From contig JAZDGR010000052.1 of NCBI GenBank assembly GCA_043806735.1, positions 9,995 to 73,994 of the forward strand: a stretch of DNA of 64,000 nt, written 5' to 3'. Under the pieces are notes generated by a model. It saw only the letters and a program-made list of their open reading frames with translations, searched no databases and had not been told where the DNA came from. The position numbers and the translations under genes were made by a program. Shown here one piece after another: positions 2,047-56,549 of this stretch. The first letter of the stretch is position 1. The number at the start of each line of letters is the position of its first letter. The DNA is from a bacterium (lineage in GTDB: Bacteria; Bacteroidota; Bacteroidia; Bacteroidales; FEN-979).

Positions 2047-3123
2047 TTAAGGGGTTTCGCGCCCGTTTTGCTTCAGGGCATTCTGAATCAGCGAGGCGAT
2101 CACGCTCACCAGCAGGATCCCTGCAATGATCATCAGCGATTGTTGCGTGCTGAGGTGCAGCCAGTGGAAATGATGCAAAATCATCTTTACTCCGACAAAC
2201 GTCAGCAGGACGGCAAGGCCCAGCTTCAGGTAATGGAACCGGTTCATGACATTCATCACCAGGAAGAAGAGGGAACGCAGGCCGAGGATGGCGAAGATGT
2301 TGGAGAAAAACACAATGTAAGGGTCCTGGGTTACTGAAAAAACAGCAGGGACCGAGTCGACAGCAAAAATCACATCCGTGAATTCGATGATCAGAAGGAT
2401 GATAAACAAGGGCGTTAAAAACCGTTTTCCATTTTTTTTGATCCAGAATTTCTCCCCATGGTCTTCCCGGGTGACCGAAAACCATTTCGAGGCAAATCTC
2501 ACCACGGGATGGTGTTCCGTGTCAATCCGGTCTTCGTCTTTCCGGGTAAAAAATTCCATTCCCATTTTGCCTCCCACCACAAGGAGAATCCCACCGAAGA
2601 TCAGCAGGAACCAGGCGAATTGCTGGATCAGGGCGCTCACGGCAAAGATGAAGAGAAACCGCATGACAATCGCTCCCAGGATTCCCCAGAAAAGCACCTT
2701 TTTGTAATACTCCTGCCGGATGTTGAAGGAGAGAAAAATCATGATGATCACGAAGACGTTGTCAACGGAGAGGGAATATTCGATGAGGTATCCCGTGAGG
2801 TATTCCAGCGCCAGGTTCAGGTTGTAAACCCGGATAGCCTCTTCCATCCCCAGTCCCTCGATGCTGATCGGGTGACTGTAAGTTTGGATCCGATCTCCGA
2901 TCGCTTCCAGTGTATCGGATCCGTGGATCAGGTTTCCGTGGCTGCGGATGAAAAAATAGAATCCGATCGAGATGCCTACCCAAACGAGGGTCCGCACGAG
3001 GGCTTCCTTCAGGCTGAGTTTGTCATTTTTCTTATTGAACAGGCCCAGATCGATTGCCAGCATCAGGCCGATAAACAGCAGGAATGAAGCGAAAAAAACA
3101 AACTCGTTTACCGACATGGTCAT
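2047..3123 (-). CDS. TerC family integral membrane protein
   Basis: 358 aa and polytopic. TerC-like segments include YLIEYSLSVDNVFVIIMIF and IIEFTDVIFAVDSVPAVF. Confidence 0.8.
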   Translation of the reverse strand: MTMSVNEFVFFASFLLFIGLMLAIDLGLFNKKNDKLSLKEALVRTLVWVGISIGFYFFIRSHGNLIHGSDTLEAIGDRIQTYSHPISIEGLGMEEAIRVYNLNLALEYLTGYLIEYSLSVDNVFVIIMIFLSFNIRQEYYKKVLFWGILGAIVMRFLFIFAVSALIQQFAWFLLIFGGILLVVGGKMGMEFFTRKDEDRIDTEHHPVVRFASKWFSVTREDHGEKFWIKKNGKRFLTPLFIILLIIEFTDVIFAVDSVPAVFSVTQDPYIVFFSNIFAILGLRSLFFLVMNVMNRFHYLKLGLAVLLTFVGVKMILHHFHWLHLSTQQSLMIIAGILLVSVIASLIQNALKQNGRETP

Positions 3124-3149
3124 GGGAATAGGTTATCGGGATGATAGGT

Positions 3150-3157
3150 CAAAAATA
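3150..3157 (-). promoter_or_regulatory. Bacteroidota -7 box (TATTTTTG on the minus strand) upstream of terC-like gene
   Basis: The plus strand reads CAAAAATA, the reverse complement of TAnnTTTG. It lies 27 nt upstream of the ATG at 3123. Confidence 0.4.
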
Positions 3158-3168
3158 ATAAAAATTCT

Positions 3169-3176
3169 TACTTTTG
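3169..3176 (+). promoter_or_regulatory. Bacteroidota -7 box TACTTTTG upstream of glnA
   Basis: Matches TAnnTTTG and ends 32 nt before the ATG at 3209. Confidence 0.45.
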
Positions 3177-3208
3177 CATCCCTGCTCGTACAAAGAAACC
3201 AGATTGCT

Positions 3209-4717
3209 ATGAATGAAGTCGTTGTGCTCAATCCGAACCCGCTGATCCGGTTTTTGGACAAACCTTCGGATGATTTTACCCGGGATGACCTGATCCGGTT
3301 CATCGAGGGCCATGGGATCCAACTAGTGAATTTCCGGTATGCCGGCGCCGACGGCCGTTTGAAGACCCTCAATTTCATTATCAAAAGCCGGAAGCACCTG
3401 GAGAGCATTCTCAACGCCGGGGAACGGGTGGACGGGTCGAGCCTTTTCCCGCATTACATCGAAGCGGGTTCTTCCGACCTATATGTGGTCCCGCGGTACC
3501 GCACCGCCTTCCTGAATCCTTTTTCCGCGATCCCCGCACTCGACATCCTCTGTTCATATTACGACAAAGACGGTTTGCCGTTTGCCAGTTCTCCAGAGTA
3601 CATCATGCGAAAAGCGCACCGGGCTTTGAAAGAGTCGGCCGGACTCGATTATGAAGTGATGGGGGAACTGGAGTACTATGTGATCAGCGAAAAAAACCCT
3701 CTCTATGAAGCGGCCGACCAGCGCGGGTATCATGAATCCTCCCCTTTCTGCAAGTGGGAGAAGCTTCGCATTGAGGCCATGCAGGCGATTGCCACTTGCG
3801 GCGGCTTCATCAAGTACGGCCATTCGGAGGTAGGCACCTTCACCGAGTCGGGACTCCTCTATGAGCAGAACGAAATCGAATTCATCCCGGTACGGCTGGA
3901 AGATGCTGCCGAGCAGCTTCTCATCGCCAAATGGATCCTCCGGTCGCTGGCTTATAAATATGGCGTGACTGTGACCTTTGCGCCCAAGATCACCACCGGA
4001 AAAGCCGGCAGCGGTCTGCATATTCATACCCGGTTGCTGAAGAATGGGAAGAGCATGATGGTGGAAAACGGGGTCCTTTCGGGTACCGCCCGGAAGGCCA
4101 TTGCGGGCTACCTATTCCTGGCCAAATCCCTTACCGCTTTCGGGAACATGATCCCCACTTCCTATTTTCGCCTGGTGCCGCACCAGGAAGCGCCGACCAC
4201 CATCTGCTGGGGTGACCGCAACCGTTCGGTCCTCGTGCGTGTTCCTTTGGGATGGAGTGATTCCAAAAACAACATGGTAAAGGATGCCAATCCGCTGGAA
4301 AAGGAAACCCGAAACCATTTCATCAACCGGCAAACGGTTGAGTTCCGCTCTCCCGATGGGTCGGCTGACGTCTACCTGCTGTTTGCCGGACTGGCTGTTG
4401 CGGCCAGGTACGGACTAGAGATGAAAGAGGCGCTCGCTTATGCCGAGAAAACCTATGTGGATATTAACATCTTTGATGCCAAATATAAAAAGCGGGTCCG
4501 CGAACTTCAGTACCTCCCCTCCTCGTGCTGGGACTCTGCCGATGCGCTGGAGAGTCAGCGGGCGATTTACCAGTCGAAAGGAGTCTTCCCGAAAAAGATC
4601 CTCGACGGGATCATCAAGAAGCTCAAGAGTTTCGACGACCAGCATCTCCTGCGGAACATCATGGACAGCGAGAAGGAGATCATCAAGCTGGTGAATACCT
4701 TCCTTCATTGCGGATAA
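3209..4717 (+). CDS. glnA: glutamine synthetase (about 500-aa form)
   Basis: Start moved to MNEVVVLNPNP. The longer tracked ORF (2972) overlaps terC and the promoter box. It has a GS beta-grasp N-terminus (LVNFRYAGADGRLKTLNF) and a catalytic-domain segment (EIEFIPVRLEDAAEQLLIAKWILRSLAYKYGVTVTFAPK...GSGLHIH). Confidence 0.85.
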   Translation: MNEVVVLNPNPLIRFLDKPSDDFTRDDLIRFIEGHGIQLVNFRYAGADGRLKTLNFIIKSRKHLESILNAGERVDGSSLFPHYIEAGSSDLYVVPRYRTAFLNPFSAIPALDILCSYYDKDGLPFASSPEYIMRKAHRALKESAGLDYEVMGELEYYVISEKNPLYEAADQRGYHESSPFCKWEKLRIEAMQAIATCGGFIKYGHSEVGTFTESGLLYEQNEIEFIPVRLEDAAEQLLIAKWILRSLAYKYGVTVTFAPKITTGKAGSGLHIHTRLLKNGKSMMVENGVLSGTARKAIAGYLFLAKSLTAFGNMIPTSYFRLVPHQEAPTTICWGDRNRSVLVRVPLGWSDSKNNMVKDANPLEKETRNHFINRQTVEFRSPDGSADVYLLFAGLAVAARYGLEMKEALAYAEKTYVDINIFDAKYKKRVRELQYLPSSCWDSADALESQRAIYQSKGVFPKKILDGIIKKLKSFDDQHLLRNIMDSEKEIIKLVNTFLHCG

Positions 4718-4866
4718 ATCGGACGTTATGTCATGCAGAAGATCATCCGTTGCGTCATTTTGTCGCCAGAAAAGATTCCGGGTTCCGTTTTTCGCATTTG
4801 GTACATAAATTGAACCTGGCCGGTCAGAACAACAATAAAACAAAAAATATAAAGGAGGACTACATT

Positions 4867-5292
4867 ATGACAATTATCAGGTGGCAACACAGAAACCCGT
4901 TGGCCAATATTGTGTCCGGTTTTTTCGACACCGAATTCCATGATTTCTTCGGCAGACGCGTGTGCGACCCTACCGCGAACATCATGGAGAAACCTGAAGG
5001 GTTTGAACTGGAGATCGCTGCTCCGGGATTGAAGAAAGAAGATTTCAAGATCAACCTTGAAAATGCCGTTCTTACCATCTCTTCCGAAATGGAAGACGAA
5101 AAGAGGGAAGAAGGCAAAAACTACACCCGGAAAGAGTTTTATTACGGGTCTTTCAGCCGTTCATTCACCCTGCCGAAATCGGTTGACACCGAGAAGATCA
5201 AAGCCGATTACGACAATGGCATCCTGCGGATCGATTTACCGAAGAAAGCAGAATCCACGCTGGAAATCAAGAAAGAGATCAAGATCTCCTAA
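4867..5292 (+). CDS. Hsp20 / alpha-crystallin small heat-shock protein
   Basis: Start at MTIIRWQ. Alpha-crystallin core: FELEIAAPGLKKEDFKINLENAVLTISSE...FSRSFTLPKSVDTEKIKADYDNGILRIDLPK. AAGGAGG lies 8 nt upstream of the ATG. Confidence 0.9.
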   Translation: MTIIRWQHRNPLANIVSGFFDTEFHDFFGRRVCDPTANIMEKPEGFELEIAAPGLKKEDFKINLENAVLTISSEMEDEKREEGKNYTRKEFYYGSFSRSFTLPKSVDTEKIKADYDNGILRIDLPKKAESTLEIKKEIKIS

Positions 5293-10015: not shown

Positions 10016-10690
10016 ATGAGTTCTTCACTGTTGCACTTTTCATCCATCACCAAGAAGATCTGGATGGCTTTCCTCGGTTTATTCCTGATGGTTTTTCTGG
10101 TCGTTCACCTGGGCATCAACCTTTGCCTGTTGCGTGACGATGGCGGAGCCTGGTTTCACGAAGCGGCGCATTTCATGGGGACCAACTACATCGTAAAGGT
10201 CTTTGAAGTGATTTTGTTCGGGGGGTTCATCTTTCACATCTTGCTGGGGATTCTCCTGCAACTCCGCAACTGGATGTCGCGCCCGACGCGATACCGCATC
10301 AACAACCGTTCAACCACCCCGTTCCTGAGTAAATACATGATCTACTCCGGAGGGATCGTGCTGATTTTCCTGATCATCCATTTCATGAACTTCTATTTTA
10401 TCAGGCTGGGCTGGGTTGAAAGTCCGGTTGCCCCCTTGGAAGGCGGGGAGCCCGATTTTTATGAAACAGCCCGCTGGTTGTTCGTCCAACCTTTTTATTC
10501 GGTGCTTTACATCTTCCTGATGGTAGTCCTCGCGTTTCATCTAAACCATTCGTTTGGCGCAGTTTTTCAGACGTTCGGACTAGCTCATAAGACCTATACT
10601 CCGTACATCAAGGGATTTGGAACTTTCTATTCAATCGTGATCCCTGCTGGTTTCATTATCATACCGCTCTATTTTTTAATTTTTAGTTAG
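10016..10690 (+). CDS. sdhC: succinate dehydrogenase / fumarate reductase cytochrome b subunit (b558 type)
   Basis: 224 aa with about 5 TM helices carrying His residues. It lies directly upstream of the flavoprotein subunit. Confidence 0.8.
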
Positions 10691-10695
10691 TTCGT

Positions 10696-12633
10696 ATGGC
10701 TGAATTAAGTTCAAAAATTCCACAGGGTCCGGTGGCAGAAAAATGGACCCGGTATAAAGCTCATCAGAACCTGGTCAATCCTTCCAACAAACGGAAACTG
10801 GATGTACTTGTCGTGGGAACCGGTCTGGCCGGCGCTTCTGCGGCTGCCTCTCTCGGGGAGCTCGGGTTCAATGTCAAGATCTTCTGTTACCAGGATAGCC
10901 CTCGCCGGGCGCACAGCATTGCGGCCCAGGGCGGGATCAATGCGGCGAAAAACTATCCGAACGACGGCGACAGCATTTACAGGTTATATTACGACACAAT
11001 CAAGGGAGGCGACTACCGTTCGCGCGAAGCCAACGTATACCGGCTCGCGGAAGTGAGTAACGACATCATCGACCAGTGCGTGGCCCAGGGGGTTCCCTTT
11101 GCGCGCGAATACAGCGGGTTGCTGGAGAACCGTTCGTTTGGCGGAGCGCAGGTGTCTCGCACGTTTTATGCCCGCGGACAAAGCGGACAACAGCTGCTGC
11201 TCGGAGCTTACGGATCGCTGAGTCGCCAGATCAAGGAGGGTCAGGTCAAGATGTACAACCGGCATGAGATGATGGACGTAGTGATGGTGGATGGGAAAGC
11301 CCGTGGGATTATCGCGCGTGATCTGATCACCGGGGAACTGGAGCGTTATTTCGGCCATACCGTGATCATTGCTACCGGAGGGTATGGAAACGTTTTCTAC
11401 CTTTCCACCAATGCCATGGGTTCCAACACAAGCGCCATCTGGCAGATCTTCAAAAAAGGGGCTTTCTTTGCCAATCCCTGTTTTACCCAGATCCATCCCA
11501 CCTGCATCCCGGTTCACGGGGATTATCAGTCGAAGCTTACCCTGATGAGTGAGAGCCTCCGGAATGACGGCCGTATCTGGGTCCCGAAAAACAAGGAAAC
11601 TGCCGAAAAGGTCCGCAAAAGGGAACTAAAAGCCAACCAGGTCAAAGAGGAAGACAGGGATTATTTCCTCGAACGCAGATATCCTGCTTTCGGGAACCTG
11701 GTTCCGCGCGATGTAGCTTCACGGGCAGCCAAAGAGCGTTGCGATGCCGGGTACGGAGTTGGAGATACCGGGCTGGCCGTCTTCCTCGACTTTGCCGATT
11801 CCATCAAACGGCTCGGAAAGCACGTGATCGAAGAACGATATGGAAACCTTTTCCAGATGTATGAAAAGATCGTGGACGAAAACCCTTACGAAAATCCCAT
11901 GATGATCTTCCCGGCCGTCCACTATACCATGGGCGGGACCTGGGTTGATTACGAACTGATGAGCACCGTCCAGGGGCTGTTTGTTGCGGGAGAGGCCAAC
12001 TTTTCCGACCACGGCGCTAACCGTCTGGGGGCTTCTGCCCTGATGCAGGGGCTGGCCGACGGCTATTTCGTATTGCCTTATACCATCCAGAACTACCTCT
12101 CGGACCAGATTAATGTCCCCAGGATATCCACAGACAAACAGGAGTTTGCCGCTGCGGAACAAGCCGTCGCGGCAAGGCTTGAGAAACTGATGGTCATCAA
12201 GGGAACAAAATCGGTCGACCATTTTCACAAAGCCCTGGGAAAGATTATGTGGGAATATGTCGGAATGGGGAGAAACGCGGAGGGGTTAAAGAAGGCCATC
12301 GCCCTGATCAGGGAACTCCGGGAGGATTTCTGGAAAGAGGTAAAGATCCCCGGAAAAGCAAACGAAATGAATATCGAACTCGAGAAGGCCAACCGGGTAG
12401 CCGACTTCCTGGAACTCGGGGAGCTGATGGCCCTCGACGCCCTGGAGCGGAATGAAAGCTGTGGCGGCCATTTCCGCGAAGAGTTCCAGACCGAAGAAGG
12501 AGAGTGCTTGCGCGACGATAAAGATTATATGTATGTTGCCGCCTGGGAGTACAAAGGCGAAGGCGAATTCGTACTACATAAGGAGCCGCTTGTTTACGAA
12601 GAGATCGAGGTGAAGCAGCGGGTGTACAAATAG
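10696..12633 (+). CDS. sdhA: succinate dehydrogenase / fumarate reductase flavoprotein subunit
   Basis: 645 aa. FAD-binding motif [31 protein letters not shown], and the C-terminal [10 protein letters not shown]. Confidence 0.92.
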
Positions 12634-12661
12634 CGATTAGGGATTAGGGATTAGGGGTTAG
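12634..12661. repeat. heptanucleotide tandem array (GGATTAG)x4, left bracket of the four-helix-bundle cassette
   Basis: Reads cgattag ggattag ggattag gggttag and starts on the base after the sdhA TAG stop. Confidence 0.9.
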
Positions 12662-12669
12662 AATTGTAA

Positions 12670-13053
12670 ATGAATGTGCCAAAGAAAATAGTGTCGTATC
12701 ATGATTTGGAGGTCTGGAGGCGTGGCGTGGAATTAGTAAAACAGGTCTATAAGATAACATCTGGATTTCCAAAATCTGAGTTATATGGTATGACTTCTCA
12801 GATTCGCAGGGCTGCTATTTCATTTCCTGCAAATATCGCTGAGGGTTGGGGGCGGGAATCCTCAAAAAACTATATACAGTTTTTGCGAAATTCCAGAGGT
12901 TCTTTATTTGAATTGGATACATTGCTAATAATTACACAAGAACTCAGTTATATTTCAACCGATCAAAGTAATAATATCCGGAAGGAAATAAATGAGCTTG
13001 GAAAAATGTTAAACTCAATTATTCAAAAAATCAATGCAAGGATTTCGGAATAG
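12670..13053 (+). CDS. four-helix-bundle protein (23S rRNA intervening-sequence protein / Avd-like family)
   Basis: 127 aa. Family-typical text: YHDLEVWRRGVELVKQVYKITSGFPKSELYGMTSQIRRAAISFPANIAEGWGR...FLRNSRGSLFELDT. It is inserted between sdhA and sdhB. Confidence 0.85.
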   Translation: MNVPKKIVSYHDLEVWRRGVELVKQVYKITSGFPKSELYGMTSQIRRAAISFPANIAEGWGRESSKNYIQFLRNSRGSLFELDTLLIITQELSYISTDQSNNIRKEINELGKMLNSIIQKINARISE

Positions 13054-13070
13054 CTTTCTAGTTCCTCAAC

Positions 13071-13119
13071 CCTAATCGCTAATCCCTAATCCCTAATCCC
13101 TAATCCCTAATCGCTTATT
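13071..13119. repeat. heptanucleotide tandem array (CCTAATC)x6 plus one degenerate unit, right bracket, inverted relative to 12634-12661
   Basis: Reads cctaatc gctaatc cctaatc cctaatc cctaatc cctaatc gcttatt and ends on the base before the sdhB ATG (13120). CCTAATC is the reverse complement of GATTAGG. Confidence 0.9.
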
Positions 13120-13860
13120 ATGAAACTTACGCTCAAGATCTGGAGGCAAAAAGACGCTAAATCGAGAGGAAAATTTGTTTCCTACAGCATCGACAACATT
13201 TCACCAAACTGCTCCTTTCTGGAGATGCTCGACATCCTGAATGAACAGTTGATCGGGAAAGACGAGGAACCCGTGACCTTTGACCACGATTGCCGCGAAG
13301 GGATTTGCGGGATGTGCAGTTTGTACATCAACGGCCGTCCGCATGGTCCCGACGACGCCATCACCACCTGTCAGCTCCATATGCGGAAGTTCAAAGACGG
13401 CGAACCCATTGTTGTCGAACCTTGGCGGGCTAAGCCTTTTCCCGTGATCAAGGACTTGATCATTGACCGGACGGCCTTTGATAAGATCATTCAGGAGGCC
13501 GGCTACATTTCTGTGAGAACGGGAGGGACGCCGGATGCCAACAGCATCCTGATCAGCAAGGTCGATTCCGATCTGGCCATGGATGCTGCGGCTTGCATCG
13601 GGTGCGGCGCCTGCGTGGCCGCCTGTAAAAATGCTTCGGCCATGTTGTTTGTTTCAGCTAAGGTTTCCCAGTTTGCGCTTCTTCCTCAGGGGCAGGTGGA
13701 AGCAAAGGAACGTGTGAAAAAGATGGTGGCCAAGATGGACGAACTGGGGTTCGGGAACTGCACCAATACTTATGCCTGCGAAGTCGAATGTCCGAAGCTG
13801 GTTTCCCGCTCCAACATCGCCCGGATGAACCGGGAGTTTATTTTTGCCAAGATTCTTTAG
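13120..13860 (+). CDS. sdhB: succinate dehydrogenase / fumarate reductase iron-sulfur subunit
   Basis: 246 aa with three Cys clusters: [33 protein letters not shown]. Confidence 0.92.
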
Positions 13861-13968
13861 CCCCTAAATCCCCACTTGCCCCCAAACCCCCTAAAGGGGG
13901 CTTATTCCCGCTTCGCGGGATTATCCTCCTGAAAAGGAGGAGTAAGTCCCCTTCAGGGGATTTAGGGG
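13861..13968. repeat. 108-bp nested-palindrome element (terminal inverted repeat CCCCTAAATCCCC / GGGGATTTAGGGG)
   Basis: Starts on the base after the sdhB stop. A 13-bp perfect terminal inverted repeat encloses the mini-hairpins ccccctaaaggggg, cccgcttcgcggg, cctcctgaaaaggagg and ccccttcagggg. Confidence 0.85.
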
Positions 13969-13983
13969 CAAACGAGACAAGAC

Positions 13984-15096
13984 ATGAAATTCATTGATAT
14001 CCAGACAGACAAAACAATCAAGCAGAAGTTGATCCAAACCATTCAGGATCAGCGAGTCAGCCATGCTCAGTTGTTTTATGGACCCGAAGGGTCAGGAAAA
14101 CTGGCCCTGGCCATCGCATATGCGCAGATGATTAATTGCACTGCCCCTAAATCCCCTGACTTACCCCCCGGCCCCCTAAAGGGGGAGGTTTCCCCCCAAG
14201 GGGGAAGTAAGTCCCCTTTAGGGGATTTAGGGGTGGACTCCTGCGGCATCTGCCCCTCCTGCATTCAGTTCCAGAAACTGGCCCATCCCGACCTCCACTT
14301 CTTTTATCCTACCGCTACCACGAAACAGGTTTCATCCAAGCCTTCCAGCAAACATTTCATCGAAGAGTGGAGGAAGTTTCTCCTGGAAAATAACTACCGG
14401 GTGAACCTGGCCGGGTGGTACGATTTCATCGGGATTGAAAACAAACAGGGGACGATCTATGCCGACGATGCCAACGAGATCAACCGCATCCTGAGTTACA
14501 AGAGCTATGAGTCGGAATACAAGGTCGTCATTATCTGGATGATCGAAAAACTGTTTCATGCAGCCGCGCCCAAGTTGCTCAAGATCCTCGAAGAACCACC
14601 CGAAAAGACACTGTTCATCCTGGTTTCCGACAACCCCGATCAGGTCATTCCGACCCTTGTATCCCGTTGCCTTCCGGTGAGGATTCCAAAGATTCAACCA
14701 GAGGAGACGCGGTTGACTTCGAAAGAGGATCAGGTTCTGTTTGAGACCTTCCGGAAATGGATGCGGATCTGTTTTGCCAACAACATTCCCGAACTAATCG
14801 GTTTTGCATCTGACGTGGGGAAAATCGGCAGGGAAAAGCAAAAAAGCCTTCTTCAGTACGGACTGGACCTTTCGGGAAACGCGCTCGCTCTCCGGCATGG
14901 GTTTTTCCGGGGATCAGCTTCCGGAGGCGAAGAATCGGAGTTCATAAAAAAGTTTTCGCCGTTCCTTTCCGAAACAAAACTGCTTCCCTTTTATACCCTG
15001 CTCAACTCCTCCATCTACCACATCGAACGCAACGCCCATGCGCCGACGCTCTTTCTTGATCTGTCGTTGAAGTTCACCGGGCTGCTCAAAAGATAA
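13984..15096 (+). CDS. holB: DNA polymerase III delta-prime subunit (clamp-loader), carrying a 30-codon repeat-derived insert
   Basis: 370 aa. It has GPEGSGK, the zinc-module-like CGICPSC...HPDLHFFYP and the SRC motif LVSRCL. An extra segment PKSPDLPPGPLKGEVSPQGGSKSPLGDLGV sits just before the Cys module. Confidence 0.8.
   Translation: MKFIDIQTDKTIKQKLIQTIQDQRVSHAQLFYGPEGSGKLALAIAYAQMINCTAPKSPDLPPGPLKGEVSPQGGSKSPLGDLGVDSCGICPSCIQFQKLAHPDLHFFYPTATTKQVSSKPSSKHFIEEWRKFLLENNYRVNLAGWYDFIGIENKQGTIYADDANEINRILSYKSYESEYKVVIIWMIEKLFHAAAPKLLKILEEPPEKTLFILVSDNPDQVIPTLVSRCLPVRIPKIQPEETRLTSKEDQVLFETFRKWMRICFANNIPELIGFASDVGKIGREKQKSLLQYGLDLSGNALALRHGFFRGSASGGEESEFIKKFSPFLSETKLLPFYTLLNSSIYHIERNAHAPTLFLDLSLKFTGLLKR
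14144..14233. repeat. 90-bp nested-palindrome element, same family as 13861-13968, in frame inside holB
   Basis: It has the same 13-bp termini (cccctaaatcccc ... ggggatttagggg), an inner inverted pair gacttac/gtaagtc, and the mini-hairpins ccccctaaaggggg and ccccccaaggggg. Length is 90 nt, i.e. 30 codons. Confidence 0.85.
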
Positions 15097-35726: not shown

Positions 35727-37606
35727 TACTCTTTTACGGGTTCCAGCAATTCGATCAAAAGGTCATCCATATAAAAAGGTTGTTTGCCGCGGTTCCAGAT
35801 ATAGACTGCCAGCACATCTTCCGCGTCGGTCACAAACGGAATCTCGTAATCCATACTTACGGGATTCCATTCCCCAACCTTCAGGGAATCATCTGCCAGC
35901 TGGATCGATTTGTATTTGTAGTTGTTTTCTTTCCCGGTCATGGTCACCACCAGGTTGGCCGGACTCTCTTTCATTTCAACGGTAGGGTAGACAAACAGGG
36001 TCACCCGGAGCCAGGAACCCTCTTTCGCTGCGAGCTCATTGTAGGCTACCTTAATCCCGGGGGAGAATTCAACGGTCGAGTCCATCTGATACGAATGGCT
36101 GCCAGCCTTCACGATGGTTCTGGAAAGATGCGGGTCCTGATCTGCCCCCTGGTATTCAAAGGTATAATTGGCAAGTACGCGCTTTGTAAACTGCTGACCC
36201 TCCTTCAGGAATTCGCGGTCGGAAGTTTCCACAACCTCCAGCAGTTTTTTGCTGGATTCTTCCACGTGTGTCCGACCAAAAATAGCCCAGTAGTATTCTT
36301 TCGTCATCCGCGACGGGTCAATGATCCAGGTCATGTACTGCCAGGTCTGGAACAGGTTAAGCCAGATAAAGAAAGCTGCAACAACGAAGAACACCAGCTT
36401 CAGCCAGATGCGGCGACGAAAGATCCAGGTGATGAATGCCCCGAAGGGGATCGCCAGTAAGGCATAGGATTGCATGAGGGACCGTTGGCCCAGACTGCCA
36501 CCATACCACCAGGTTGTCCAGGAGGAGACGATGAGCAGGTTGACGGTAAAAAAAAGGAATGCTGCCCAGAAGAGTTCCCGTTTCTGCCGCCAGAGGAAGA
36601 TAAAACCTGCCACCGGAAAACACATCATGGGAGCATAGATCAGCCAGCCCTTTTTCCAGGAAAAGAGGACAAACATGATGTAAGGCGCCAGGAACCGCAA
36701 TCCCTCCCCTTCTTCGTAACTGTAATACAAAAATCTCCCGGAATAGATCTTCCAGTAGATTAATTGGACTGAACCCACCAGCAATACGCACAAACCCATA
36801 CCAATGACCTGTGACCAGTGACTAGTGACTAGTGACAATTTTTTCTGCAGGGTATCTTTATTCCATATACCCCAGAGCAGGGGGATCAGTGCACTGATGA
36901 TCTCGGTAGGACGAATCAGGACCGCGAGGCCCACAAACAAACCCAGCGGTATGGCAAATCTCCATTTCGGCGTTTCATGCCATTTCATGGTAAACCAGAT
37001 GATGAGGGCATAAATGGCAAACAGCGTGTTGTGCACCATTGCCCCGTCGTATGCGGTAAGCTGGAAAAAGTTGGTTCCCAGGATCAGAAGTACCATGACA
37101 ACCGAGGTGACAACATCCGAAAAGTACCTGATCAGGATCTTGCGCAGAAACCAGATGCCGATGACGGTATAAATGAGGCATCCCATGGCAATGGAAAACT
37201 GGTAGGGCAGTGAAAACCCGTCTTGGACATAACCGAGAGCACCTGCCAGCCAATGGGCAAGAAAGAAAAAGGGTGAGAACAAAATAGCCATCCCCATCGG
37301 GTATTTCAGGATGTAGTGCTCTTCGGGGCCCATATAGGCCTGATAAAACCCGATGGTGGGTCCATATTTGTCGAGGATCTGCTGAAGCCAGGAGAAATCG
37401 GATATTCCCAGGTCATGATAGATGAACTTTGCCGGAAGGTAGAGGTAATAACCAAAAACATCCCATGAGAGGATCGAAAGTACATCATAGGTCAGCCAGC
37501 GCGGGAGTAAAAACCTGCCCAGAATTACTCCGGCCGATAAAATCAGAAAGGTAACGCCGGAGATTGGGGCAACTGCTTTATTCTTCACCATTAAACCGGT
37601 TGTCAC
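35726..37606 (-). CDS. GT-C-like polytopic membrane protein (ArnT/PMT/YfhO-like architecture) with C-terminal CBM-like module
   Basis: 626 aa with the same architecture as 33945-35726. The tail ends in [21 protein letters not shown]. It overlaps the GT2 gene by 4 nt and the next GT-C-like gene by 1 nt. Confidence 0.5.
36802..36836. repeat. heptanucleotide array, 5 units (nnGTGAC), translated in frame inside the GT-C-like gene
   Basis: Plus strand: caatgac ctgtgac cagtgac tagtgac tagtgac. On the coding strand it is read as TTG TCA CTA GTC ACT AGT CAC TGG TCA CAG GTC ATT, giving [12 protein letters not shown]. Confidence 0.85.
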
Positions 37607-38373
37607 TTTGTGTATTTCCTGTCAAAAATGTTGTACCGGATCAGGCAGATCACGGCTCTCAGCGCATCTTTCATCCGGATTTTCTTTCCTTCTTCATAGG
37701 TTCTTCCGTAGTAGGAGATGCCCACTTCATAGATCCGGATCCCCGGAAACCGTGCGATTTTGGAGGTGACTTCCGGCTCAAAGCCAAACCGCTGCTCCTT
37801 AAAATGGATTTGTTTCAGGAACCCGGCACGGAACAGCTTGTAGCAGGTCTCCATGTCGGTAAGGTTGAGGTTGGTAAAGAGGTTGGAGACGAAGGTCAGG
37901 ATCTTATTCCCGATCGAGTGCCAGAAAAAGAGGATCCGGTGGGGACGGCCTCCCATGAAACGGGAACCATATACCACATCGGCGACGCCATCCAGCATAG
38001 GTTTTAACAGCACTTCATATTCCTGGGGATCATATTCCAGGTCGGCATCCTGAATAATAATGAACTCCCCTGTTGCCAGCTCAATGCCTTTATGGATTGC
38101 TGCACCTTTGCCCTGGTTGAAGGGCTGTGAGAAGAACTGGATAGTGGTGACTGGTGACTGGTGACTGGTGACTGGTGACTTTTCAATGTACTCTTTGACG
38201 ATCTCTCCCGTATTATCCGTTGAGGCGTCGTTGGTGACAATGATCTCTTTTTTGAGTCCGCCGGGCAGGGTCGCCGAAAAGACCTTGTCAAGGATCCGGG
38301 TGATGGTTTTTCCCTCGTTAAAAGCCGGGATCAGGATGGAAAGTGTTTGATCCATGGAAGTAGAATTATTCAT
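37603..38373 (-). CDS. family 2 glycosyltransferase, small soluble polyprenyl-phosphate-sugar-synthase-like type
   Basis: 256 aa. [21 protein letters not shown] and the DxD motif [12 protein letters not shown], plus NQGKGAA. It contains the repeat-derived segment [11 protein letters not shown]. Confidence 0.8.
38145..38179. repeat. heptanucleotide array (TGGTGAC)x5, translated in frame inside the GT2 gene
   Basis: Five perfect units. The coding strand (TCACCAG)n is read as [11 protein letters not shown]. Confidence 0.9.
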
Positions 38374-40921
38374 GAAAATAGATGCGTTTCACGCGTCTTG
38401 AAATACTGGTCAGGATCTCATACGGTATCGTCTCCAGGGTTTTGGCCAGCTCCGTTACCGGGAAGTCGTCCCCGAAAATGATCACCAACTCCCCTTCGTT
38501 CACGGGGGTTCCGCTTTGCACAATCTGCGTAATGTCCAGCATGCAAAGATCCATGCAAATGTTGCCGATCACCGGGGCGCGAACCCCTTTCACCAGCAGG
38601 TGCCCGCGTCCATTTCCCAGTTTGCGGTCTAATCCGTCGGCATATCCCACCGGGACTATTGCTATGAGGCTGTCCTTATATGCTTTTCCGATGCGGTTAT
38701 AGCCGATGGTTTCTCCTGCTTGTATGGTTTTAATCTGGGTGATGACCGATCGTAAAGTGCTCACATTCCGCAGGCGCTTTTGCTCGACTTCATCATACCC
38801 TACCCCGTAAAGGCCGATCCCCAGCCGGACCATCTCGAACTGACCCTCTGGGAACCGGCTGATTCCTGCCGAATTCAGAATGTGCCTTAACACCGGGTAT
38901 CCGACAGCTTGCCTGATTTTTTCGCTCATTTCGATAAACTTGCGGAACTGTTCGCCCGTAAAGGGATCCAGATTCGGGTCTTCGCTTCCCGCAAGATGGG
39001 AGAATACGGAACAAACCCGAATGGTGTGACTTCCCGTGATTCTTTCGATCAATGCATCGAGCTCGTCGGGACAAAAACCCAGCCGGTGCATCCCGGTATC
39101 CAGCTTGATATGGATTGGAACGGCTTCCCTGGACCCGGTCGGATTCCGGTCAATGGCTTCCTCCAGCATGCGCAGGATCCGGTGGTTGTATATCTCCGGT
39201 TCAAGGTTGTAATTCAAAAGCGTTTCAATGCTCTCTTCTTCCGGACTCATCACCATAATGGGCAGACTGATGCCGGCGTTTCGCAGTTCGACGCCTTCAT
39301 CGGCATAGGCAACAGCCAGGTAATCGACATGATTGAACTGAAGCAGGTTGGCGATCTCGTAGCTTCCACTGCCGTATGAAAAGGCTTTTACCATCGCCAT
39401 AATTTTTACACCCGGTTTCAGTTTGGCCTTATAGAAGTTGAGGTTGTGAACCAGGGCATCCAGGTTGATCTCCAGTACCGTTTCATGCGATTTTTGCTGC
39501 AATGCCTGGCTGATCCGCTCAAATCCGAACAGGCGGGCGCCTTTCAGGAGAATGGTCTCGTCGCGAAAGGACGAGAGCGGGAAGTGATTTAGGAACTCAT
39601 CAGTAGTTTCAAAGAAGGCTTTCTGCATCGGAAACTGATGCAGGTTCCGTGAAATATCCGGACCGATTCCGATGATCCGGTCAATTTTTTTCTCCGCCAG
39701 GATCCTGGCGATTGTTCCGTACAGTTCCTCCTGGCTACGGCCTGTTTGCAGGATATCCGACAGGATCAGGGTCTTTTTCCGGTGCTGGTTCTGCTGCACG
39801 AGGAAATCCAGGGCAATGCCCAGCGAATTGATGTCGGAATTGTAGCTGTCGTTGATGAGGGAGCAATGGTTGATCGCCTCCTTGAGTTCGAGGCGCATGG
39901 CGACGGAAGTCAGGAGGGGGAACCGATCGGTGATACGAGATACGGGATCCGGGATTCCTAACACCATCGTCAACGCCCAGCAGTGAATTGCGTTTTCAAC
40001 AGAAGCTTCGTCGGTGAAAGGGATGGTTATTTCGATCTCTTTTTGTTGATATAATCCCCGGATGCAGGAATGTCCCTGCTCTTTTCGGATCTCTTTGATC
40101 ATCAGGTCATCTCTTTCCCCGCTCCCCCATGTAAACCGCTTCAATGCCGTGTATTTTTCCGACCGCTCAAGCAGGTCGCCGATCATCCGATAGTCTGACC
40201 GGTAGATCAGGATATCAGAGTGCACAAAAATCTTCAGCTTCTCTTCCGCTTTTCCTTCATATCCGCTGAAGTGTTCATCATGCGCCGGGCCGATGTTGGT
40301 GAGGATCCCGATGGTCGGTCTGATGATCTCTTCCAGCCGGTCCATTTCCCCGGGTTGTGAAATTCCGGCTTCAAAAATAGCCAGGTCATATCGGGGTTCC
40401 ATTTTCCAGACCGACAGGGGTACTCCGAGTTGGGAATTGAAGCTTTTGGGACTGCGGATCACTTGGAAATCCGGAGAAAGCAACTGGTACAGCCATTCTT
40501 TCACGATGGTCTTCCCGTTGCTTCCCGTGATCCCGATTACCGGATATCCGAATTGCTTCCTGTGATGGGCGGCGAGTTGCTGGAGGGCAGTCAGGGTGTC
40601 GGAGACCAGGATAAAGACAGGATCCCGTTGCTTCGCTGCGCTCGCAATGACAATGTTTCCTGCCAACTGCCAACTGCCAACTGCCAACTGCAAATTGCTG
40701 ATCAGGAAGCACTTCACGCCCTTTTCCGCCAGCTCCCGGATGTACCGGTGACCATCGTTCCGGCCGCTTACAAGGGCAATAAAGAGGGTCCCTTCGGGAT
40801 TTGCAAGCCGCCTGCTATCAATGAGCAATTCTGATATGGCCGGATCTGCCGGAGCTGAAGAAATCACCTCCCCGTCGGTGATCCGGGCGATCTCGCTGGC
40901 GTTATATTGAAGCACACTCAT
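38366..40921 (-). CDS. murF: bifunctional UDP-MurNAc-tripeptide--D-Ala-D-Ala ligase (MurF) / alanine racemase (Alr) fusion
   Basis: 851 aa. Mur ligase P-loop GITGSNGKT in the N-terminal half. Alr PLP-site block [12 protein letters not shown] and the C-terminal PVGYADG in the second half. It carries a repeat-derived insert [24 protein letters not shown]. Confidence 0.85.
40661..40695. repeat. heptanucleotide array (TGCCAAC)x4 plus one degenerate unit, translated in frame inside murF-alr
   Basis: Reads tgccaac x4 then tgcaaat. The coding strand (CAGTTGG)n is read as [11 protein letters not shown]. Confidence 0.9.
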
Positions 40922-53300: not shown

Positions 53301-53721
53301 CGACGATCCGGGTAACCCCGCCCGTGTTGTAAGTATCCCAGTCGCCGTACAATCCGATGTTGCTTTGCTTCAGATCCGACAAGTTGTTGAAAATGATGAA
53401 CTGGATCTTATCCTCCAGTCCCGACTGCAGCATCAGCTCGATCTCCCGGATGTGCTGGTCGGCATATTCGGCCGTAAACTGTGCCAATTCCTTTCCGTTG
53501 AGGTAATAATAGGTGTCAAATTTGTCGAACCGGAAATAGGTCCAGAAGAAGTCGTTAAACTGCACCCGGCTCTTCCCGAAATTGAGCTGGGAGCCGTTGT
53601 AAAACTGGGCATGTAGAGAAGGAAGAAGGAAGAGGGAAGCGGGAAGAGGGAAGAGGGAAGAAGTAAGAAGAACAGTACGGAGAACGACAGTGAAAAGTCG
53701 GTGGTTTCTTTTTCCAGGCAT
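50368..53721 (-). CDS. large outer-membrane protein: N-terminal peptidase-MA-like region, TolB-like beta-propeller, C-terminal Omp85/BamA-like barrel
   Basis: Start moved to MPGKRNHRLFTVVLRTVLL, which gives a signal peptide. TolB-like repeats: SPDSRIVAYTT, WHPSGKILAI, YSGDGALLAFSAV...SDIFVYN, PGSGEIIFSSNR. The C-terminus ...IFYFSLSLDF ends in an OMP beta-signal Phe. Confidence 0.55.
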   Translation of the reverse strand: MPGKRNHRLFTVVLRTVLLTSSLFPLPASLFLLPSLHAQFYNGSQLNFGKSRVQFNDFFWTYFRFDKFDTYYYLNGKELAQFTAEYADQHIREIELMLQSGLEDKIQFIIFNNLSDLKQSNIGLYGDWDTYNTGGVTRIVGGRVMLYFDGDYAHFEEQIRSGIATVILNQMMYGTGIGAQIKNNALFTMPEWYMNGLISYISTKWNTEVDNIVRDAVLGGKYRKFNRLTGIEATWAGHSLWHYISVRYGEAAIPNIVYMARLSRNIEKGFLYVVGLPYKTLLDDWLAYYQALYSTQDFDRTNPVGQLLNRKYKPNRVYRQLKLSPDSRIVAYTTHELGIYKVYLLDIETGKKKRIYRAGYRLAERPDYTFPFLAWHPSGKILAILTERKGENWLYFYNVEEKLFDHQILYNFQKILDMGYSGDGALLAFSAVQKGKSDIFVYNIAAGSHEQLTNDVYDDFNPRFLPGSGEIIFSSNRVSDTVRFYPEVDLEKLTFINDIFVYNYRAKSPLLKRITHTPLANEIQPMPYADGLFCYLSDENGIYNRYLARFDSVISYIDTATHYRYFTTAFPVTNYKRNIVEQDLSLAAAGIGEVVVGQQYSRMYRMDMMLPGQVSSATLKPTTFMDRERKKVELQEAISKGDTVIKPIEIIAKPGKKHFRTVLLSDVIGDLQPADARDSSYLKMLQKKHGMIRTPQDTTSLMTLLNTPVQDTLNKYKQAKALNYNVEYAIDEMVTQIDFTYLNTSYQPFSGGLQPVFINPGLNVLFMVGVTDLMEDYRISGGVRLNFDLVNNEYIFSYLNCKRRLDQQIIYHRIGVDEFGVYSYIRHKVNELYYIAKYPFTPVLNVSGTASIRYDRAVYLSTDQLNLKQPDVNTIWGSLKGELTYDNTRNYGVNLYYGTRYKFFGEYYQTVNKPGNNVFILGMDIRHYQKIHRTMIWANRLAASTSFGSNKLVYYMGGVDNWLWPRFDMNTPVAFDQNYVFQTLATNLRGFQQNIRNGNSFFVINSEIRLPVFRYFFNRPIRSDFLNNFQVVAFGDLGTAWTGISPWSEDNQLFKKYIYRNPLFIQVEMIKDPLVGGFGGGLRTRLLGYFLRADLAWGVEDGHIRKPIFYFSLSLDF
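53617..53672. repeat. purine/pyrimidine heptanucleotide array, 8 units (AGARGGA-like), encoding the signal-peptide core of the Omp85-like protein
   Basis: Plus strand: agaagga agaagga agaggga agcggga agaggga agaggga agaagta agaagaa. The coding strand is read as LLTSSLFPLPASLFLLPS, followed by LHAQ. Confidence 0.85.
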
Positions 53722-54741: not shown

Positions 54742-55737
54742 ATGAAGATTCTGGTAATCCGGTTCAGTTCTATCGGCGACATCGTCCTGACGACCCCTAT
54801 TGTCCGGTGCCTCAAGGAGCAGTTGCCTAACGTGGAGATCCATTACCTCACCAAGAAGCAATATATCCCGGTCCTTCAGGCAAATCCATATATTACTAAG
54901 ATTCAGCTTTACAAAGAGAACTTCCGGGAGCTGGTTCCGAAGCTGAAAGCCGAACGGTTTGACCGGATCATTGATCTGCATAAAAACATCCGTTCCCATT
55001 ACATCCGGTTTTGTTTACGGAAACCTGCCACTTCATTTCCCAAAGTTAATTTTCAGAAGTGGCTGATGACCCGGTGGAAGATTGACCTGCTGCCCCCTAT
55101 TCACCTTGTAGACAGGTATTTTAAGGCAGTGGAACCGTTGGGCATCCGGAATGACGGTAACGGACTGGATTATTTTTTACCTGATCCGGGACAATTTTCC
55201 GTTTACGAGAGATTTCCCGATCTCACAGGTAGGTTCATCGCGATTGCTATCGGCGCCCGGCATGCTACCAAAATCTATCCGGCCGCCAAGGTGTCTGAAC
55301 TGTGCGATCTGTTGCCTTTGCCTGCGATTCTGCTGGGAGGAAAAGAGGATATGGCACGCGGGGAAGAGATCATCAGGATAACCCGCGCAAAGGTCTTCAA
55401 TGCCTGCGGACTGCTCACCCTCAACGAATCGGTTTCGGTAATCTTCCAGGCTGTTCAGGTAATTTCCAACGACACCGGGATGATGCACATCGCGGCAGCC
55501 CTGAAGAAGCCGGTGATCAGCCTTTGGGGAAACACTATTCCCGGATTCGGCATGTACCCGTATTTCCCCGAAGAGTGCAGCCATCTTTCGACCCTGGTTG
55601 AAGTGAAGAGCTTGTCCTGTCGTCCCTGCAGCAAGCTGGGGTACCCAGAATGTCCGAAAAAACACTTCGATTGCATGGAGAAGATCGACCCGAAGGCTGT
55701 TGTGGAGGCAGTGAGGCTGGTAAACAGTGAACAATGA
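54742..55737 (+). CDS. family 9 glycosyltransferase (LPS heptosyltransferase-like)
   Basis: 331 aa. MKILVIRFSSIGDIVLTTP, the C-terminal half ISNDTGMMHIAAAL and PCSKLGYPECP. The last residues and the stop codon lie inside the CAGTGAA array. Confidence 0.8.
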   Translation: MKILVIRFSSIGDIVLTTPIVRCLKEQLPNVEIHYLTKKQYIPVLQANPYITKIQLYKENFRELVPKLKAERFDRIIDLHKNIRSHYIRFCLRKPATSFPKVNFQKWLMTRWKIDLLPPIHLVDRYFKAVEPLGIRNDGNGLDYFLPDPGQFSVYERFPDLTGRFIAIAIGARHATKIYPAAKVSELCDLLPLPAILLGGKEDMARGEEIIRITRAKVFNACGLLTLNESVSVIFQAVQVISNDTGMMHIAAALKKPVISLWGNTIPGFGMYPYFPEECSHLSTLVEVKSLSCRPCSKLGYPECPKKHFDCMEKIDPKAVVEAVRLVNSEQ

Positions 55738-55766
55738 ACAGTGAACAGTGAATAGTGAACAGTGAC
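55725..55766. repeat. heptanucleotide array (CAGTGAA)x6 with variants
   Basis: Reads cagtgaa caatgaa cagtgaa cagtgaa tagtgaa cagtgac. It spans the GT9 stop (55735-55737) and ends 3 nt before the tatD ATG. Confidence 0.9.
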
Positions 55767-55769
55767 CGC

Positions 55770-56549
55770 ATGGCAGTTTTTGCAGATACCCACGCACACC
55801 TTTACCTGGAAGCGTTCGATGAGGATCGGGAGGAGGTCATCAGGCGTGCAGTTGAGGCGGGAGTACATTACCTTTTTCTGCCAAACATAGACACATCGAG
55901 TATCCCGTATCTCGCATCTCTTATCTCACAGCATCCCGGCTATTGCTTCCCCATGATGGGCCTTCATCCCGGTTCCGTGAAAAATGACTTCCGGGAGCAA
56001 CTGGGAGTCATTGAAATGGAACTCCGGCAAAACCCCGGAAAATACTGTGCGGTGGGTGAGATCGGGATTGACCTATACTGGGATAAGACATTTGCCAAAG
56101 AGCAGGAGGTTGTGTTTGTCAGGCAACTGGAACTGGCACTGGAGTTTAACCTCCCGGTCGCTATCCATACCCGCAATTCGATGGAACTTGCGCTGAAGTT
56201 GGTGGAAGGAATGAAGGATCCGGCCCTGTGCGGAGTGTTTCACTGTTTCAGCGGAAACCTTGCGCAAGCGAACCGGGCGATTGAACTGGGATTCAGACTG
56301 GGGATTGGTGGGGTAGTCACTTTCAAGAACTCCGGTTTGCAGACTGTGGTGGAGGAAATTGAGCTCGAACACCTGCTTCTGGAGACCGATGCTCCTTACC
56401 TGGCGCCAGTGCCGTTCCGGGGCCAGCGCAACGAACCGTCTTATATTCCGTATATTGCGGAGAAGCTAGCGGAATTGAAAAAGCTGTCTGTGGAAGAGGT
56501 AGCGGCAGTTACGACGGAAAGCGCGTTGAAGTTATTCGGTTTGCATTAG
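55770..56549 (+). CDS. tatD: TatD family metal-dependent hydrolase/nuclease
   Basis: Start moved to MAVFADTHAHLY (HxH motif). Further blocks: GEIGIDLYW, VAIHTRNS, FHCFSG, LLLETDAPYLAP. Confidence 0.85.
   Translation: MAVFADTHAHLYLEAFDEDREEVIRRAVEAGVHYLFLPNIDTSSIPYLASLISQHPGYCFPMMGLHPGSVKNDFREQLGVIEMELRQNPGKYCAVGEIGIDLYWDKTFAKEQEVVFVRQLELALEFNLPVAIHTRNSMELALKLVEGMKDPALCGVFHCFSGNLAQANRAIELGFRLGIGGVVTFKNSGLQTVVEEIELEHLLLETDAPYLAPVPFRGQRNEPSYIPYIAEKLAELKKLSVEEVAAVTTESALKLFGLH

Follow-up and report, generated by a model that had tools for sequence, protein, structure and literature searches.

A four-helix-bundle gene lies between inverted heptamer arrays in the sdhA-sdhB spacer

The window analysed here, a stretch of 64,000 nucleotides from a Bacteroidales genome of the FEN-979 lineage (contig JAZDGR010000052.1), includes a type-B succinate dehydrogenase/fumarate reductase operon in which the spacer between sdhA and sdhB holds a gene for a four-helix-bundle (4HB) protein enclosed by two arrays of heptanucleotide repeats. 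All features of this operon that we describe lie on the + strand. Its first gene is sdhC/frdC, encoding a cytochrome b558-family subunit (10016-10690; TIGR02046, E 6.5e-52), followed by sdhA/frdA for the flavoprotein subunit (10696-12633; PF00890 and PF02910; NF005749, 1174.7 bits) and, beyond the spacer, by sdhB/frdB for the iron-sulfur subunit (13120-13860; PF13085; NF005746, 421.5 bits).

The spacer is 486 bp long and consists of a left array, a 127-codon open reading frame (ORF) and a right array, a layout that had been proposed in the initial annotation and that was confirmed by our repeat, inverted-arm and hidden Markov model (HMM) analyses. The left, G-rich arm (12631-12661, 4.4 copies), found by Tandem Repeats Finder, as an inverted-repeat arm and by pattern search, reads TAGCGAT TAGGGAT TAGGGAT TAGGGGT TAG, with a period of 7 and TAGGGAT (also written GATTAGG) as its Tandem Repeats Finder unit. 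Its first triplet in the sequence is the TAG stop codon of sdhA itself (12631-12633), which is in register with the array, and not one base before it as had been annotated. The 4HB gene follows (12670-13053, 127 amino acids; HMM matches and AlphaFold model) and belongs to PF05635/TIGR02436, the '23S rRNA intervening sequence protein' or S23p family. The right, C-rich arm (13065-13115), detected in the same three ways, contains about 6-7 copies of CCTAATC/CCCTAAT, of which Tandem Repeats Finder reports 6.1 at 13070-13112 (period 7, unit CCCTAAT). This clean array does not extend to one base before the sdhB start, as previously described, but stops 7 nt before it, and a degenerate last unit, GCTTATT, reaches the ATG at 13120; the start codon is located 4 nt past the last paired base of the arm, so that sdhB lies directly 3' of the stem base. 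Both arrays have the characters of heptameric long simple-sequence repeats (LSSRs), being made of head-to-tail 7-nt units (4.4 and 6.1 copies) and being longer than chance.

The two arrays are reverse complements of each other: 12632-12661 pairs with 13086-13115 over 30 nt with 97% complementarity, and the sole non-Watson-Crick position in this duplex is a G opposite a T. The stem of ~28 bp that had been envisaged can thus be folded, with a best duplex of 30 bp, and an alternative pairing joins longer arms (12631-12666 with 13067-13102; 36 nt, 86%). A terminal complementary stem of at least ~20 bp that closes the element is also a feature of rRNA intervening sequences (IVSs). When the spacer RNA was folded in silico, the arrays formed the closing stem and the predicted energy was -158.9 kcal/mol versus -117.2 +/- 5.7 kcal/mol for shuffled sequences (z = -7.4); folded singly, the arms were essentially unstructured (left -3.2, right 0 kcal/mol). 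A 21-mer probe made of three units (at most 3 mismatches) gave 9 matches in the window, all within the two arrays and on opposite strands, while none were expected from 100 shuffles, and a chance origin of the arrays was rejected on this basis. No Rfam family matched within 12400-13400, no defence-system model matched at the spacer, and scans of the spacer detected neither a sigma-70-type promoter-like site nor a terminator-like site, so that the cassette is most likely transcribed within an sdhC-sdhA-cassette-sdhB unit.

The encoded S23p-family protein is predicted to be an Avd-like four-helix bundle

The translated ORF scored above the cut-offs of PF05635 (E 5e-39, 133.1 bits for a cut-off of 33.8), TIGR02436 (E 1e-37, 128.4 bits for 24) and NF008911 (154.7 bits for 137). 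The AlphaFold monomer model (predicted local distance difference test score of 94) consists of four helices (residues 14-30, 35-60, 65-91 and 97-126) with the up-down four-helix-bundle fold of PDB entries 2GSC and 2RLD. The best superposition was with XCC0516 (2GSC; TM-scores 0.86/0.95, root-mean-square deviation 0.8 A, 39% identity; phmmer 2.5e-25), the next with BT_0352 (2RLD; TM-scores 0.76/0.89), and both entries contain five chains, the crystal structures of this family being homopentameric toroids. Positions Q44, R47, S51, N55-I-A-E-G59, G61, R62, F71, G77 and E81 were invariant in two alignments, giving the motif Q-x2-R-x3-S-x3-NIAEG-x-GR. The family is very large, with 22,543 clusters at 50% identity (E <= 1e-3), and one database protein (P0001) is 100% identical to that of the window; a scan of viral contigs, made to look for phage carriage, confirmed no relative.

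The initial annotation had linked this protein to Avd, the accessory protein of diversity-generating retroelements (DGRs), and this link holds at the level of the fold only: the superposition on Avd (4DWL) was more distant (TM-scores 0.77/0.90, 14% identity) and the Avd sequence models stayed below their cut-offs (NF033474, 39.9 bits versus 80, E 4e-10; PF22296, 32.5 versus 40, E 1e-7). No reverse transcriptase was present among the neighbours called within ~3 kb (pepP, sdhC, sdhA, sdhB, holB and PSP1), no dedicated search having been made for DGR template and variable repeats. Judging from these scores and from the model, the protein is Avd-like in its predicted fold but is not an Avd.

Most related sdh operons have an empty spacer

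We compared 80 loci with SdhB relatives (607 kb), from metagenome-assembled genomes and isolates of Bacteroidota, the closest of which are labelled Prolixibacteraceae or Bacteroidales. The sdhA-sdhB spacer was only 1-100 bp long in most of them, measuring 21 bp in the closest genome match (L001), and the 4HB gene was absent from about 70 of the 80 operons. The spacer contained a 4HB gene in L016, L045, L069 (Ulvibacterium marinum CCMM003, a cultured carrier) and L075 (Polaribacter), with proteins 35-61% identical to that of the window; in each of these four loci, the gene was flanked by imperfect inverted short-period arrays whose sequence differed from locus to locus. A search of all ORFs of the 607 kb and of the window with the family HMM found no 4HB gene outside these sdh spacers. 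On a tree of SdhB, occupied spacers were scattered, each beside empty sisters, a sporadic presence at a conserved site that is also IVS-like. On a tree of the 4HB proteins, most of the sdh-located ones fell into one broad group, those of L069/L075, L045, L139 and L171 branching elsewhere, and divergent lineages (35-43% identical) were found in the same spacer; both trees were built by neighbour joining from short proteins and are indicative only. This pattern is one of long vertical residence with repeated losses, plus probably a few independent arrivals in the spacer. The empty sites that the initial annotation proposed to look for are thus present in most relatives, and the distribution is not that of an ancient synteny without repeats.

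Some of the spacers without a 4HB gene were not plain. ORF-less hairpins made of inverted heptamer arrays with lineage-specific units were seen in the 'empty' spacers of L004, L025, L031, L065 and L066 (minimum free energies of -18 to -39 kcal/mol), and also in L008 and L063, showing that stem-only versions exist at the sdhA-sdhB junction. We rejected the idea that these hairpins are decayed cassettes, as no 4HB coding remnant was detected in them (all E > 1). The spacer of L041 contains an unrelated ORF of ~190 amino acids (268-857), with an apparently hydrophobic, signal-like N-terminus by translation and without heptamer arrays, so the spacer can accept other cargo too.

Orthologous loci conserve the gene, the repeat unit and the position of both arrays

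The nearest homologues of the 4HB protein (P0003, P0011 and P0013, 76-78% identical) are encoded in loci that keep the arrangement pepP(-)/sdhC/sdhA/4HB/sdhB/holB/PSP1. Synonymous sites are saturated between these orthologous loci and the window (proportion of synonymous differences 0.65-0.85), the ORF is nevertheless intact and the ratio of non-synonymous to synonymous changes is ~0.09-0.28 (~0.03-0.06 for sdhB), indicating a functional gene under purifying selection. In every orthologue, the left array starts from the sdhA stop codon and the right array extends to within a few nucleotides of the sdhB ATG; the unit, GATTAGG on one arm and CCTAATC on the other, is identical, and the number of copies varies (~4-7 on the left, 4-6 on the right). 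In the more distant orthologues L104-L107, the left arm has GGCATTA/GCCATTA in place of GGGATTA and the right arm TAATGCC/TAATGGC, both arms having changed in concert. In the empty sister L001, the spacer reads TAG-A-GATTA-CCTAATC-ACTGAAGT-ATG, with one partial left unit abutting one right unit, which from its sequence could be the deletion footprint of a cassette. The outgroup L003, whose site is empty, carries a similar ATTACCTTAATC motif, so that this sequence may instead be a short palindrome that preceded the arms and gave rise to them. Within this clade, the cassette has been resident for long and was passed on vertically, with occasional losses.

These data bear on a DNA-level explanation, according to which the arrays are slippage-prone repeats, kept symmetrical by template switching (quasipalindrome correction) or by hairpin/cruciform extrusion, with a role in insertion or excision of the cassette rather than in the transcript. 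We find this explanation rather unlikely. It fits with the variable copy number, with a hairpin-mediated deletion in L001 and, beyond these loci, with the polymerase slippage to which heptamer LSSRs are ascribed in the passages on such arrays in PMC4692102 and PMC4679880. It is, however, at odds with a unit that remained the same while synonymous sites became saturated, as this speaks for selection and not for neutral slippage, and the motif of the empty outgroup L003 leaves the L001 'footprint' open to being ancestral. Furthermore, arms that are ~420 nt apart are poor substrates for quasipalindrome template switching.

The same data were used to evaluate whether the 4HB gene could be an anciently fixed operon member, encoding an accessory or assembly factor of Sdh/Frd that happens to be flanked by repeats. 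This gene is intact and under purifying selection at this site across the whole clade, and many of the 4HB proteins from Bacteroidota sdh spacers cluster in the protein tree, as would be expected of such a factor. We rejected this explanation, which we consider hardly credible, since the gene is missing from most related sdh operons, with occupied and empty spacers interleaved on the SdhB tree. Moreover, the spacer houses divergent 4HB lineages, and members of the huge family are bracketed likewise in nuo, ilv, met, fatty-acid oxidation, ABC exporter and DNA methyltransferase operons, as described below.

Inverted heptamer arrays are a family-wide companion of 4HB genes

A metagenome scan with the 4HB alignment provided 80 loci on diverse contigs, AT-rich as well as GC-rich, and nearly all of them displayed by eye a G-rich period-7 array upstream of the gene and its complement downstream. 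To quantify this bracket, we used the best ungapped inverted repeat between the 120-nt flanks of a gene, with a threshold score of at least 12 and with the other genes of the 4HB loci as controls: 39 of 67 4HB genes reached the threshold, compared to 0 of 108 control genes (Fisher 4e-21), which answers in the affirmative, for other family members, the check proposed in the initial annotation of whether paralogues have flanking inverted heptamer arrays. RNA duplexfold energies between flanks were dropped as non-discriminating, since shuffled flanks also gave about -43 kcal/mol. The best autocorrelation lag was 7 in 56 flanks (26 upstream and 30 downstream), other lags being best in at most 2 flanks each and 5 in all. 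Among the 49 loci with both arrays, the consensus units of the two arms were complementary (at most 1 mismatch) in 31, for 3.9 expected when partners were shuffled (2000 shuffles, maximum 11), and a direct arrangement was found in none. Altogether, 24 different units occurred among the loci, and the arm-to-arm spacing clustered at ~400-530 nt, which is the size of the gene.

The arrays were also oriented with respect to transcription. The upstream arm had more G than C in 51 of 58 cases and the downstream arm more C than G in 46 of 56, a strand polarity relative to the gene that a symmetric DNA cruciform does not predict. The upstream neighbour was close and co-oriented in essentially all loci, both neighbours were co-oriented in 41 of 48, and a divergent upstream gene was found in 0 cases; the cassette is thus dependent on an upstream co-oriented gene. 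The arrays began at a median of 3 nt past the upstream stop codon, and the median distance from their end to the following ORF with an ATG start was 17 nt. Polarity, co-orientation with the upstream gene and arrays set exactly at stops and starts all argue for a constraint at the level of the transcript or of translation, and against the DNA-level explanation considered above. Stop codons were tried, and rejected, as a reason for the period of 7: a stop triplet was present in the left-arm unit of 26 of 49 loci, without enrichment over the ~46% expected; for right-arm units, 21 of 49 represent a weak excess over the ~24% expected.

Another explanation holds that the arrays are binding sites, in RNA or DNA, of the encoded and probably pentameric 4HB protein, used for autoregulation or packaging, with a symmetry that reflects the geometry of binding. 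The conserved unit in orthologues with saturated divergence would be accounted for in this way, as would the invariant motif of the protein and the recurrence of GGGATTA-type units across clades and G+C contents (7 of the 31 loci whose units are complementary), units which moreover resemble the GGGANTN of Xanthomonas and the GGGGA(C/T)T of Nostoc described in the heptamer passages of PMC4692102. The related Avd also belongs to the reverse-transcriptase ribonucleoprotein (RNP) of DGRs (PDB 8UBE and 8UB7, among the fold matches). We nevertheless judge that this explanation is quite improbable: closely similar proteins are found with 24 different units, two pairs of cassettes on a same contig (L174/L174b and L148/L148b) have unrelated arms, and the tatD gene of the window has such a bracket without a 4HB gene (see below). 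Finally, the arms are complementary and never direct, which is predicted by pairing and not required by tandem binding.

Host sites were identified by Pfam on neighbouring genes as nuoA|nuoB (L119), ilvB|ilvN (L177) and metH|metF (L165), in line with the previous proposal that such cassettes reside in protein-coding operons; by sequence alone, further hosts looked like fatty-acid oxidation, phenylacetate, ABC-exporter, clpP and lexA operons, and cassettes with a heptamer bracket were also found in operons with DNA methyltransferase genes. None of 20 other 4HB loci that were checked had an Rfam match, so none of those is in rRNA. In several cases, the host was a gene rather than a spacer. The cassette splits MetH between its homocysteine-binding and pterin-binding domains in L146, L147 and L150 (and probably in L153 and L168, from their shared downstream sequence), and in L140, L142 and L152 it separates the YYTP and DPACGSG motifs of MmeI-type methyltransferases. 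In the MetH cases, the upstream reading frame ends within the left array and the downstream frame is open from the 4HB stop codon through the right array; the only candidate start of this frame overlaps the 4HB stop, so that the right array would be translated into a low-complexity N-terminus. The sequence of these contexts suggests that the cassette split the gene and that the two parts are coupled in translation via the 4HB gene. The common theme of the host sites is that they are junctions where continuity of the RNA or of the protein is dispensable. Overall, the family-wide pattern points to an insertional origin of the cassette.

Some operons had more than one cassette. L174 contains two (2992-3342 and 4617-4985) in successive spacers of an apparent phenylacetate/thiolase operon, whose order was judged from sequence as thioesterase, thiolase and gamma-carbonic-anhydrase-like, and L126 and L148 are similar cases. 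Related 4HB proteins were also encoded in different spacers of met operons (metH-N|metH-C and metH|metF). Such repeated cassettes within operons hint at local spread.

A proposed stem-loop cassette in an mRNA

Considering the observed anatomy, conservation, covariation, polarity and context of the element, together with its empty sites, we think it probable that it is an IVS-type stem-loop cassette that resides in mRNA instead of rRNA, and we infer from these observations its pairing in vivo, its cleavage by RNase III, a translational coupling and its spread. The G-rich 5' arm and the C-rich 3' arm would pair in the sdhCAB transcript to form a ~30-bp duplex, whose base would bring together the stop codon of sdhA, which is part of the stem, and the start codon of sdhB, 4 nt past it, with the 486-nt insert looped out. 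By analogy with the 23S IVSs of Coxiella and Leptospira, the stem would most likely be cut by RNase III, freeing the 4HB message and leaving separate sdhCA and sdhB RNAs. If it remained uncut, a ribosome that terminates at the end of sdhA would open the outer part of the stem and make the start of sdhB accessible, amounting to long-range translational coupling. Either way, the stem would make the insertion harmless to the host operon. The period of 7 would probably be explained by arrays that slippage lengthens and shortens without loss of pairing, many registers being available, and the possession of its own unit by each cassette would keep its arms from pairing with those of others. The polarity may also make sense for translation, as a C-poor 5' arm would readily hold stop triplets and a G-poor 3' arm would exclude ATG, GTG and TTG.

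Several points weigh against this scenario. Pairing and cleavage in the cell are deduced from sequence, at this locus as at the related ones, and the complementarity of the arms could be maintained by template switching between them at the DNA level. If left unresolved, a 30-bp stem beside the start of sdhB could do harm. The orthologues conserve the sequence of the unit itself, which a model in which any stem will do does not require and which leaves room for a sequence-specific binding factor. In 55 arm pairs (from L016-L183 and the window), we counted 38 G.U versus 60 A.C mismatches, so that the excess of G.U by which selection for a sense-strand RNA helix usually shows itself is absent (p = 0.03, in the opposite direction), as the DNA-level explanation would have it. 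The S23p ORF of Coxiella was reported to be probably untranslated and decaying (PMC4990558), in contrast to the ORF of the window, which is under purifying selection, and the two cases are therefore not identical. Lastly, a TatD/YchF-family nuclease gene of the window (~55770-56549) is enclosed by a second inverted heptamer pair without any 4HB gene, and the heptamer bracket is thus not exclusive to 4HB genes.

The mismatches of the 55 arm pairs were unevenly distributed: the commonest was an A of the 5' arm opposite a C of the 3' arm (43 cases), followed by G/T (20), T/G (18) and C/A (17). Given this excess of A/C, the 3' arm is more C-rich than a perfect complement, and the corresponding G.U pairs would form only in an antisense transcript.

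Other heptamer arrays and a palindromic element in the window

The arms around tatD are (GTGAACA)x6-7 at 55720-55767 and (ACTATTC/ACTGTTC)x5 at 56714-56749, with 94% complementarity over 36 nt and a distance of 957 nt. Upstream, the left array includes the stop codon of a heptosyltransferase-like gene and leaves 2 nt to the likely ATG of tatD; downstream, the right array extends to the first base of a tRNA-Ser(GGA) (56750-56839). Further heptamer arrays, each with its own unit and several of them intragenic, are located at 36800-36836, 38145-38180, 40660-40691, 53617-53670 and 39932-39955; those at 36805 and 38145 are near-complementary (at most 1 mismatch) and 1.3 kb apart. The units include (TGGTGAC)x5 inside a glycosyltransferase-like ORF, (CTGCCAA)x4.6 inside an 851-amino-acid ORF resembling a murF-alr fusion and (AGAAGGA)x7.7 near the 5' end of an 1144-amino-acid ORF. 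Arrays amount to 15.6 per 100 kb in the window, compared to 4.8 per 100 kb in the 607 kb of related sdh loci. That heptamer arrays are common in the window, including inside genes, is a further argument for the DNA-level explanation. The initial annotation had stated that this type of repeat can persist only outside ORFs: this is true for the unit of the sdh cassette and does not extend to the right arrays that would be translated elsewhere or to the intragenic arrays of the window.

Immediately downstream of sdhB, a palindromic element of ~90-110 nt is present in two copies (13860-13971 and 14143-14233) with termini GCCCCTAAATCCCC / GGGGATTTAGGGGC. One copy occupies the sdhB-holB spacer and the other is inserted in frame inside holB (DNA polymerase III delta', 13984-15096), to which it adds APKSPDLPPGPLKGEVSPQGGSKSPLGDLGVDS. 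The orthologous HolB proteins range from 347 to 408 amino acids, consistent with a tolerated insertion resembling MITEs (miniature inverted-repeat transposable elements) or REPs (repetitive extragenic palindromes).

Implications

IVSs in rRNA and S23p/4HB ORFs have been known for more than 25 years, and the literature that we examined on them offers no agreed origin or function for either. The surplus of heptamer repeats in bacterial genomes, on record since 2007 at the latest, also awaits an explanation. The locus and the family survey join these two puzzles, by showing that a very large gene family normally comes packaged as an ORF within a heptamer stem, mainly inside protein-coding operons and at the exact junctions of cooperating genes. 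The protein family and the IVS concept are already known; what appears to be undescribed is that such cassettes are placed in mRNA operons and that PF05635 genes are coupled, across the family, to inverted heptamer arrays. A full-text literature search returned no paper tying 4HB genes to flanking heptamer or inverted repeats outside rRNA, although this search was not exhaustive and a prior description is possible.

We also put forward, as a tentative idea that may well prove too broad, that PF05635 genes in inverted heptamer brackets constitute a single widespread class of IVS cassettes, colonising any RNA whose continuity is dispensable. Its proposed hosts would be helices of the 23S rRNA, spacers between co-translated subunit genes (sdhA|sdhB, nuoA|nuoB, ilvB|ilvN) and linkers split into two coupled ORFs (MetH, MmeI-type). 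In such a class, the heptamer stem would remove or loop out the insert, and the Avd-like protein would be a maintenance or spreading factor, acting for example on the heptamer RNA or DNA, possibly with a reverse transcriptase in trans. If this were true, much of the long-noted heptamer excess in bacterial genomes would be explained. Were the stem to be processed or looped out in the way known from rRNA, it would provide a general route by which a selfish or semi-domesticated gene can live harmlessly inside essential operons, and would represent a natural and portable RNA 'insulator' that splits or couples cistrons.

Comparison with known systems

The cassette resembles MITE/REP palindromes in being a short, non-autonomous, mostly intergenic type of insert with inverted ends and a possible transcript hairpin, and differs from them in carrying a conserved protein gene and in having ends made of heptamer arrays that differ between copies. 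The features of a transposon or MITE were not found: the arms vary among copies (24 units), the window has no further occurrence of the unit, and the array unit does not flank the cassette as a direct repeat (0 of 49 loci), short target-site duplications outside the arrays not having been searched separately. No multi-copy family of identical cassettes was seen, and the called neighbours are housekeeping genes, without a transposase. The cassette had initially been suggested to be mobile or selfish; its patchy distribution, the divergent lineages in one spacer and the gene-splitting contexts lend mobility indirect support, while no recent duplicate, transposase or target-site duplication was seen.

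With Avd (PDB 4DWL; DGR RNP 8UBE and 8UB7), the window protein shares the four-helix-bundle fold and a weak sequence relationship; unlike Avd, it stays at 14% identity, below both Avd model cut-offs and without a reverse transcriptase among its called neighbours.

Compared with published LSSRs, as covered by the relevant passages of PMC4692102 and PMC4679880, the arrays have the same period of 7, a G-rich unit of the GGGANTN type (GGGATTA in the window), a mostly intergenic location at stops and starts and a variable copy number. In Xanthomonas, GGGAATC heptamers (consensus GGGANTN) form 70-75 convergent inverted pairs (PMC4692102), and TAACTGA arrays, unstructured alone, are located directly before start codons in Beggiatoaceae, Cyanobacteria and a few Bacteroidetes (PMC4679880). 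The difference is that one unit dominates the genome in these cases, whereas each array of the window has its own. The same passages discuss G-quadruplexes or translational regulators, and make no connection between the arrays and 4HB genes or IVS elements.

The closest likeness is to ORF-carrying 23S rRNA IVSs, as the initial annotation had recognised. The IVS of Coxiella burnetii is 428-444 nt long and contains an S23p ORF, a 28-bp terminal stem and, upstream of the ORF, three or four tandem GACAGAT heptamers whose number varies between strains (PMC4990558). RNase III cuts inside its stem, where the first repeat begins, and excision of IVSs by this enzyme is cited for Salmonella and Leptospira as well (PMC4990558); what was demonstrated for Coxiella is, for the window cassette, proposed by analogy. 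The hosts differ, the window cassette being flanked by the coding sequences of sdhA and sdhB, in the spacer of a respiratory-enzyme mRNA, and not inserted in helix 9, 25 or 45 of the 23S rRNA, even if IVS sites in 23S rRNA were likewise described as places of dispensable continuity (PMC4990558). Like the 23S IVSs of Coxiella and Leptospira, it combines an S23p/PF05635 ORF in the loop, a stem of ~28-30 bp, heptamers in variable copy number and a total length of ~430-490 nt with a sporadic occurrence among relatives and a dependence on the transcript of its host.

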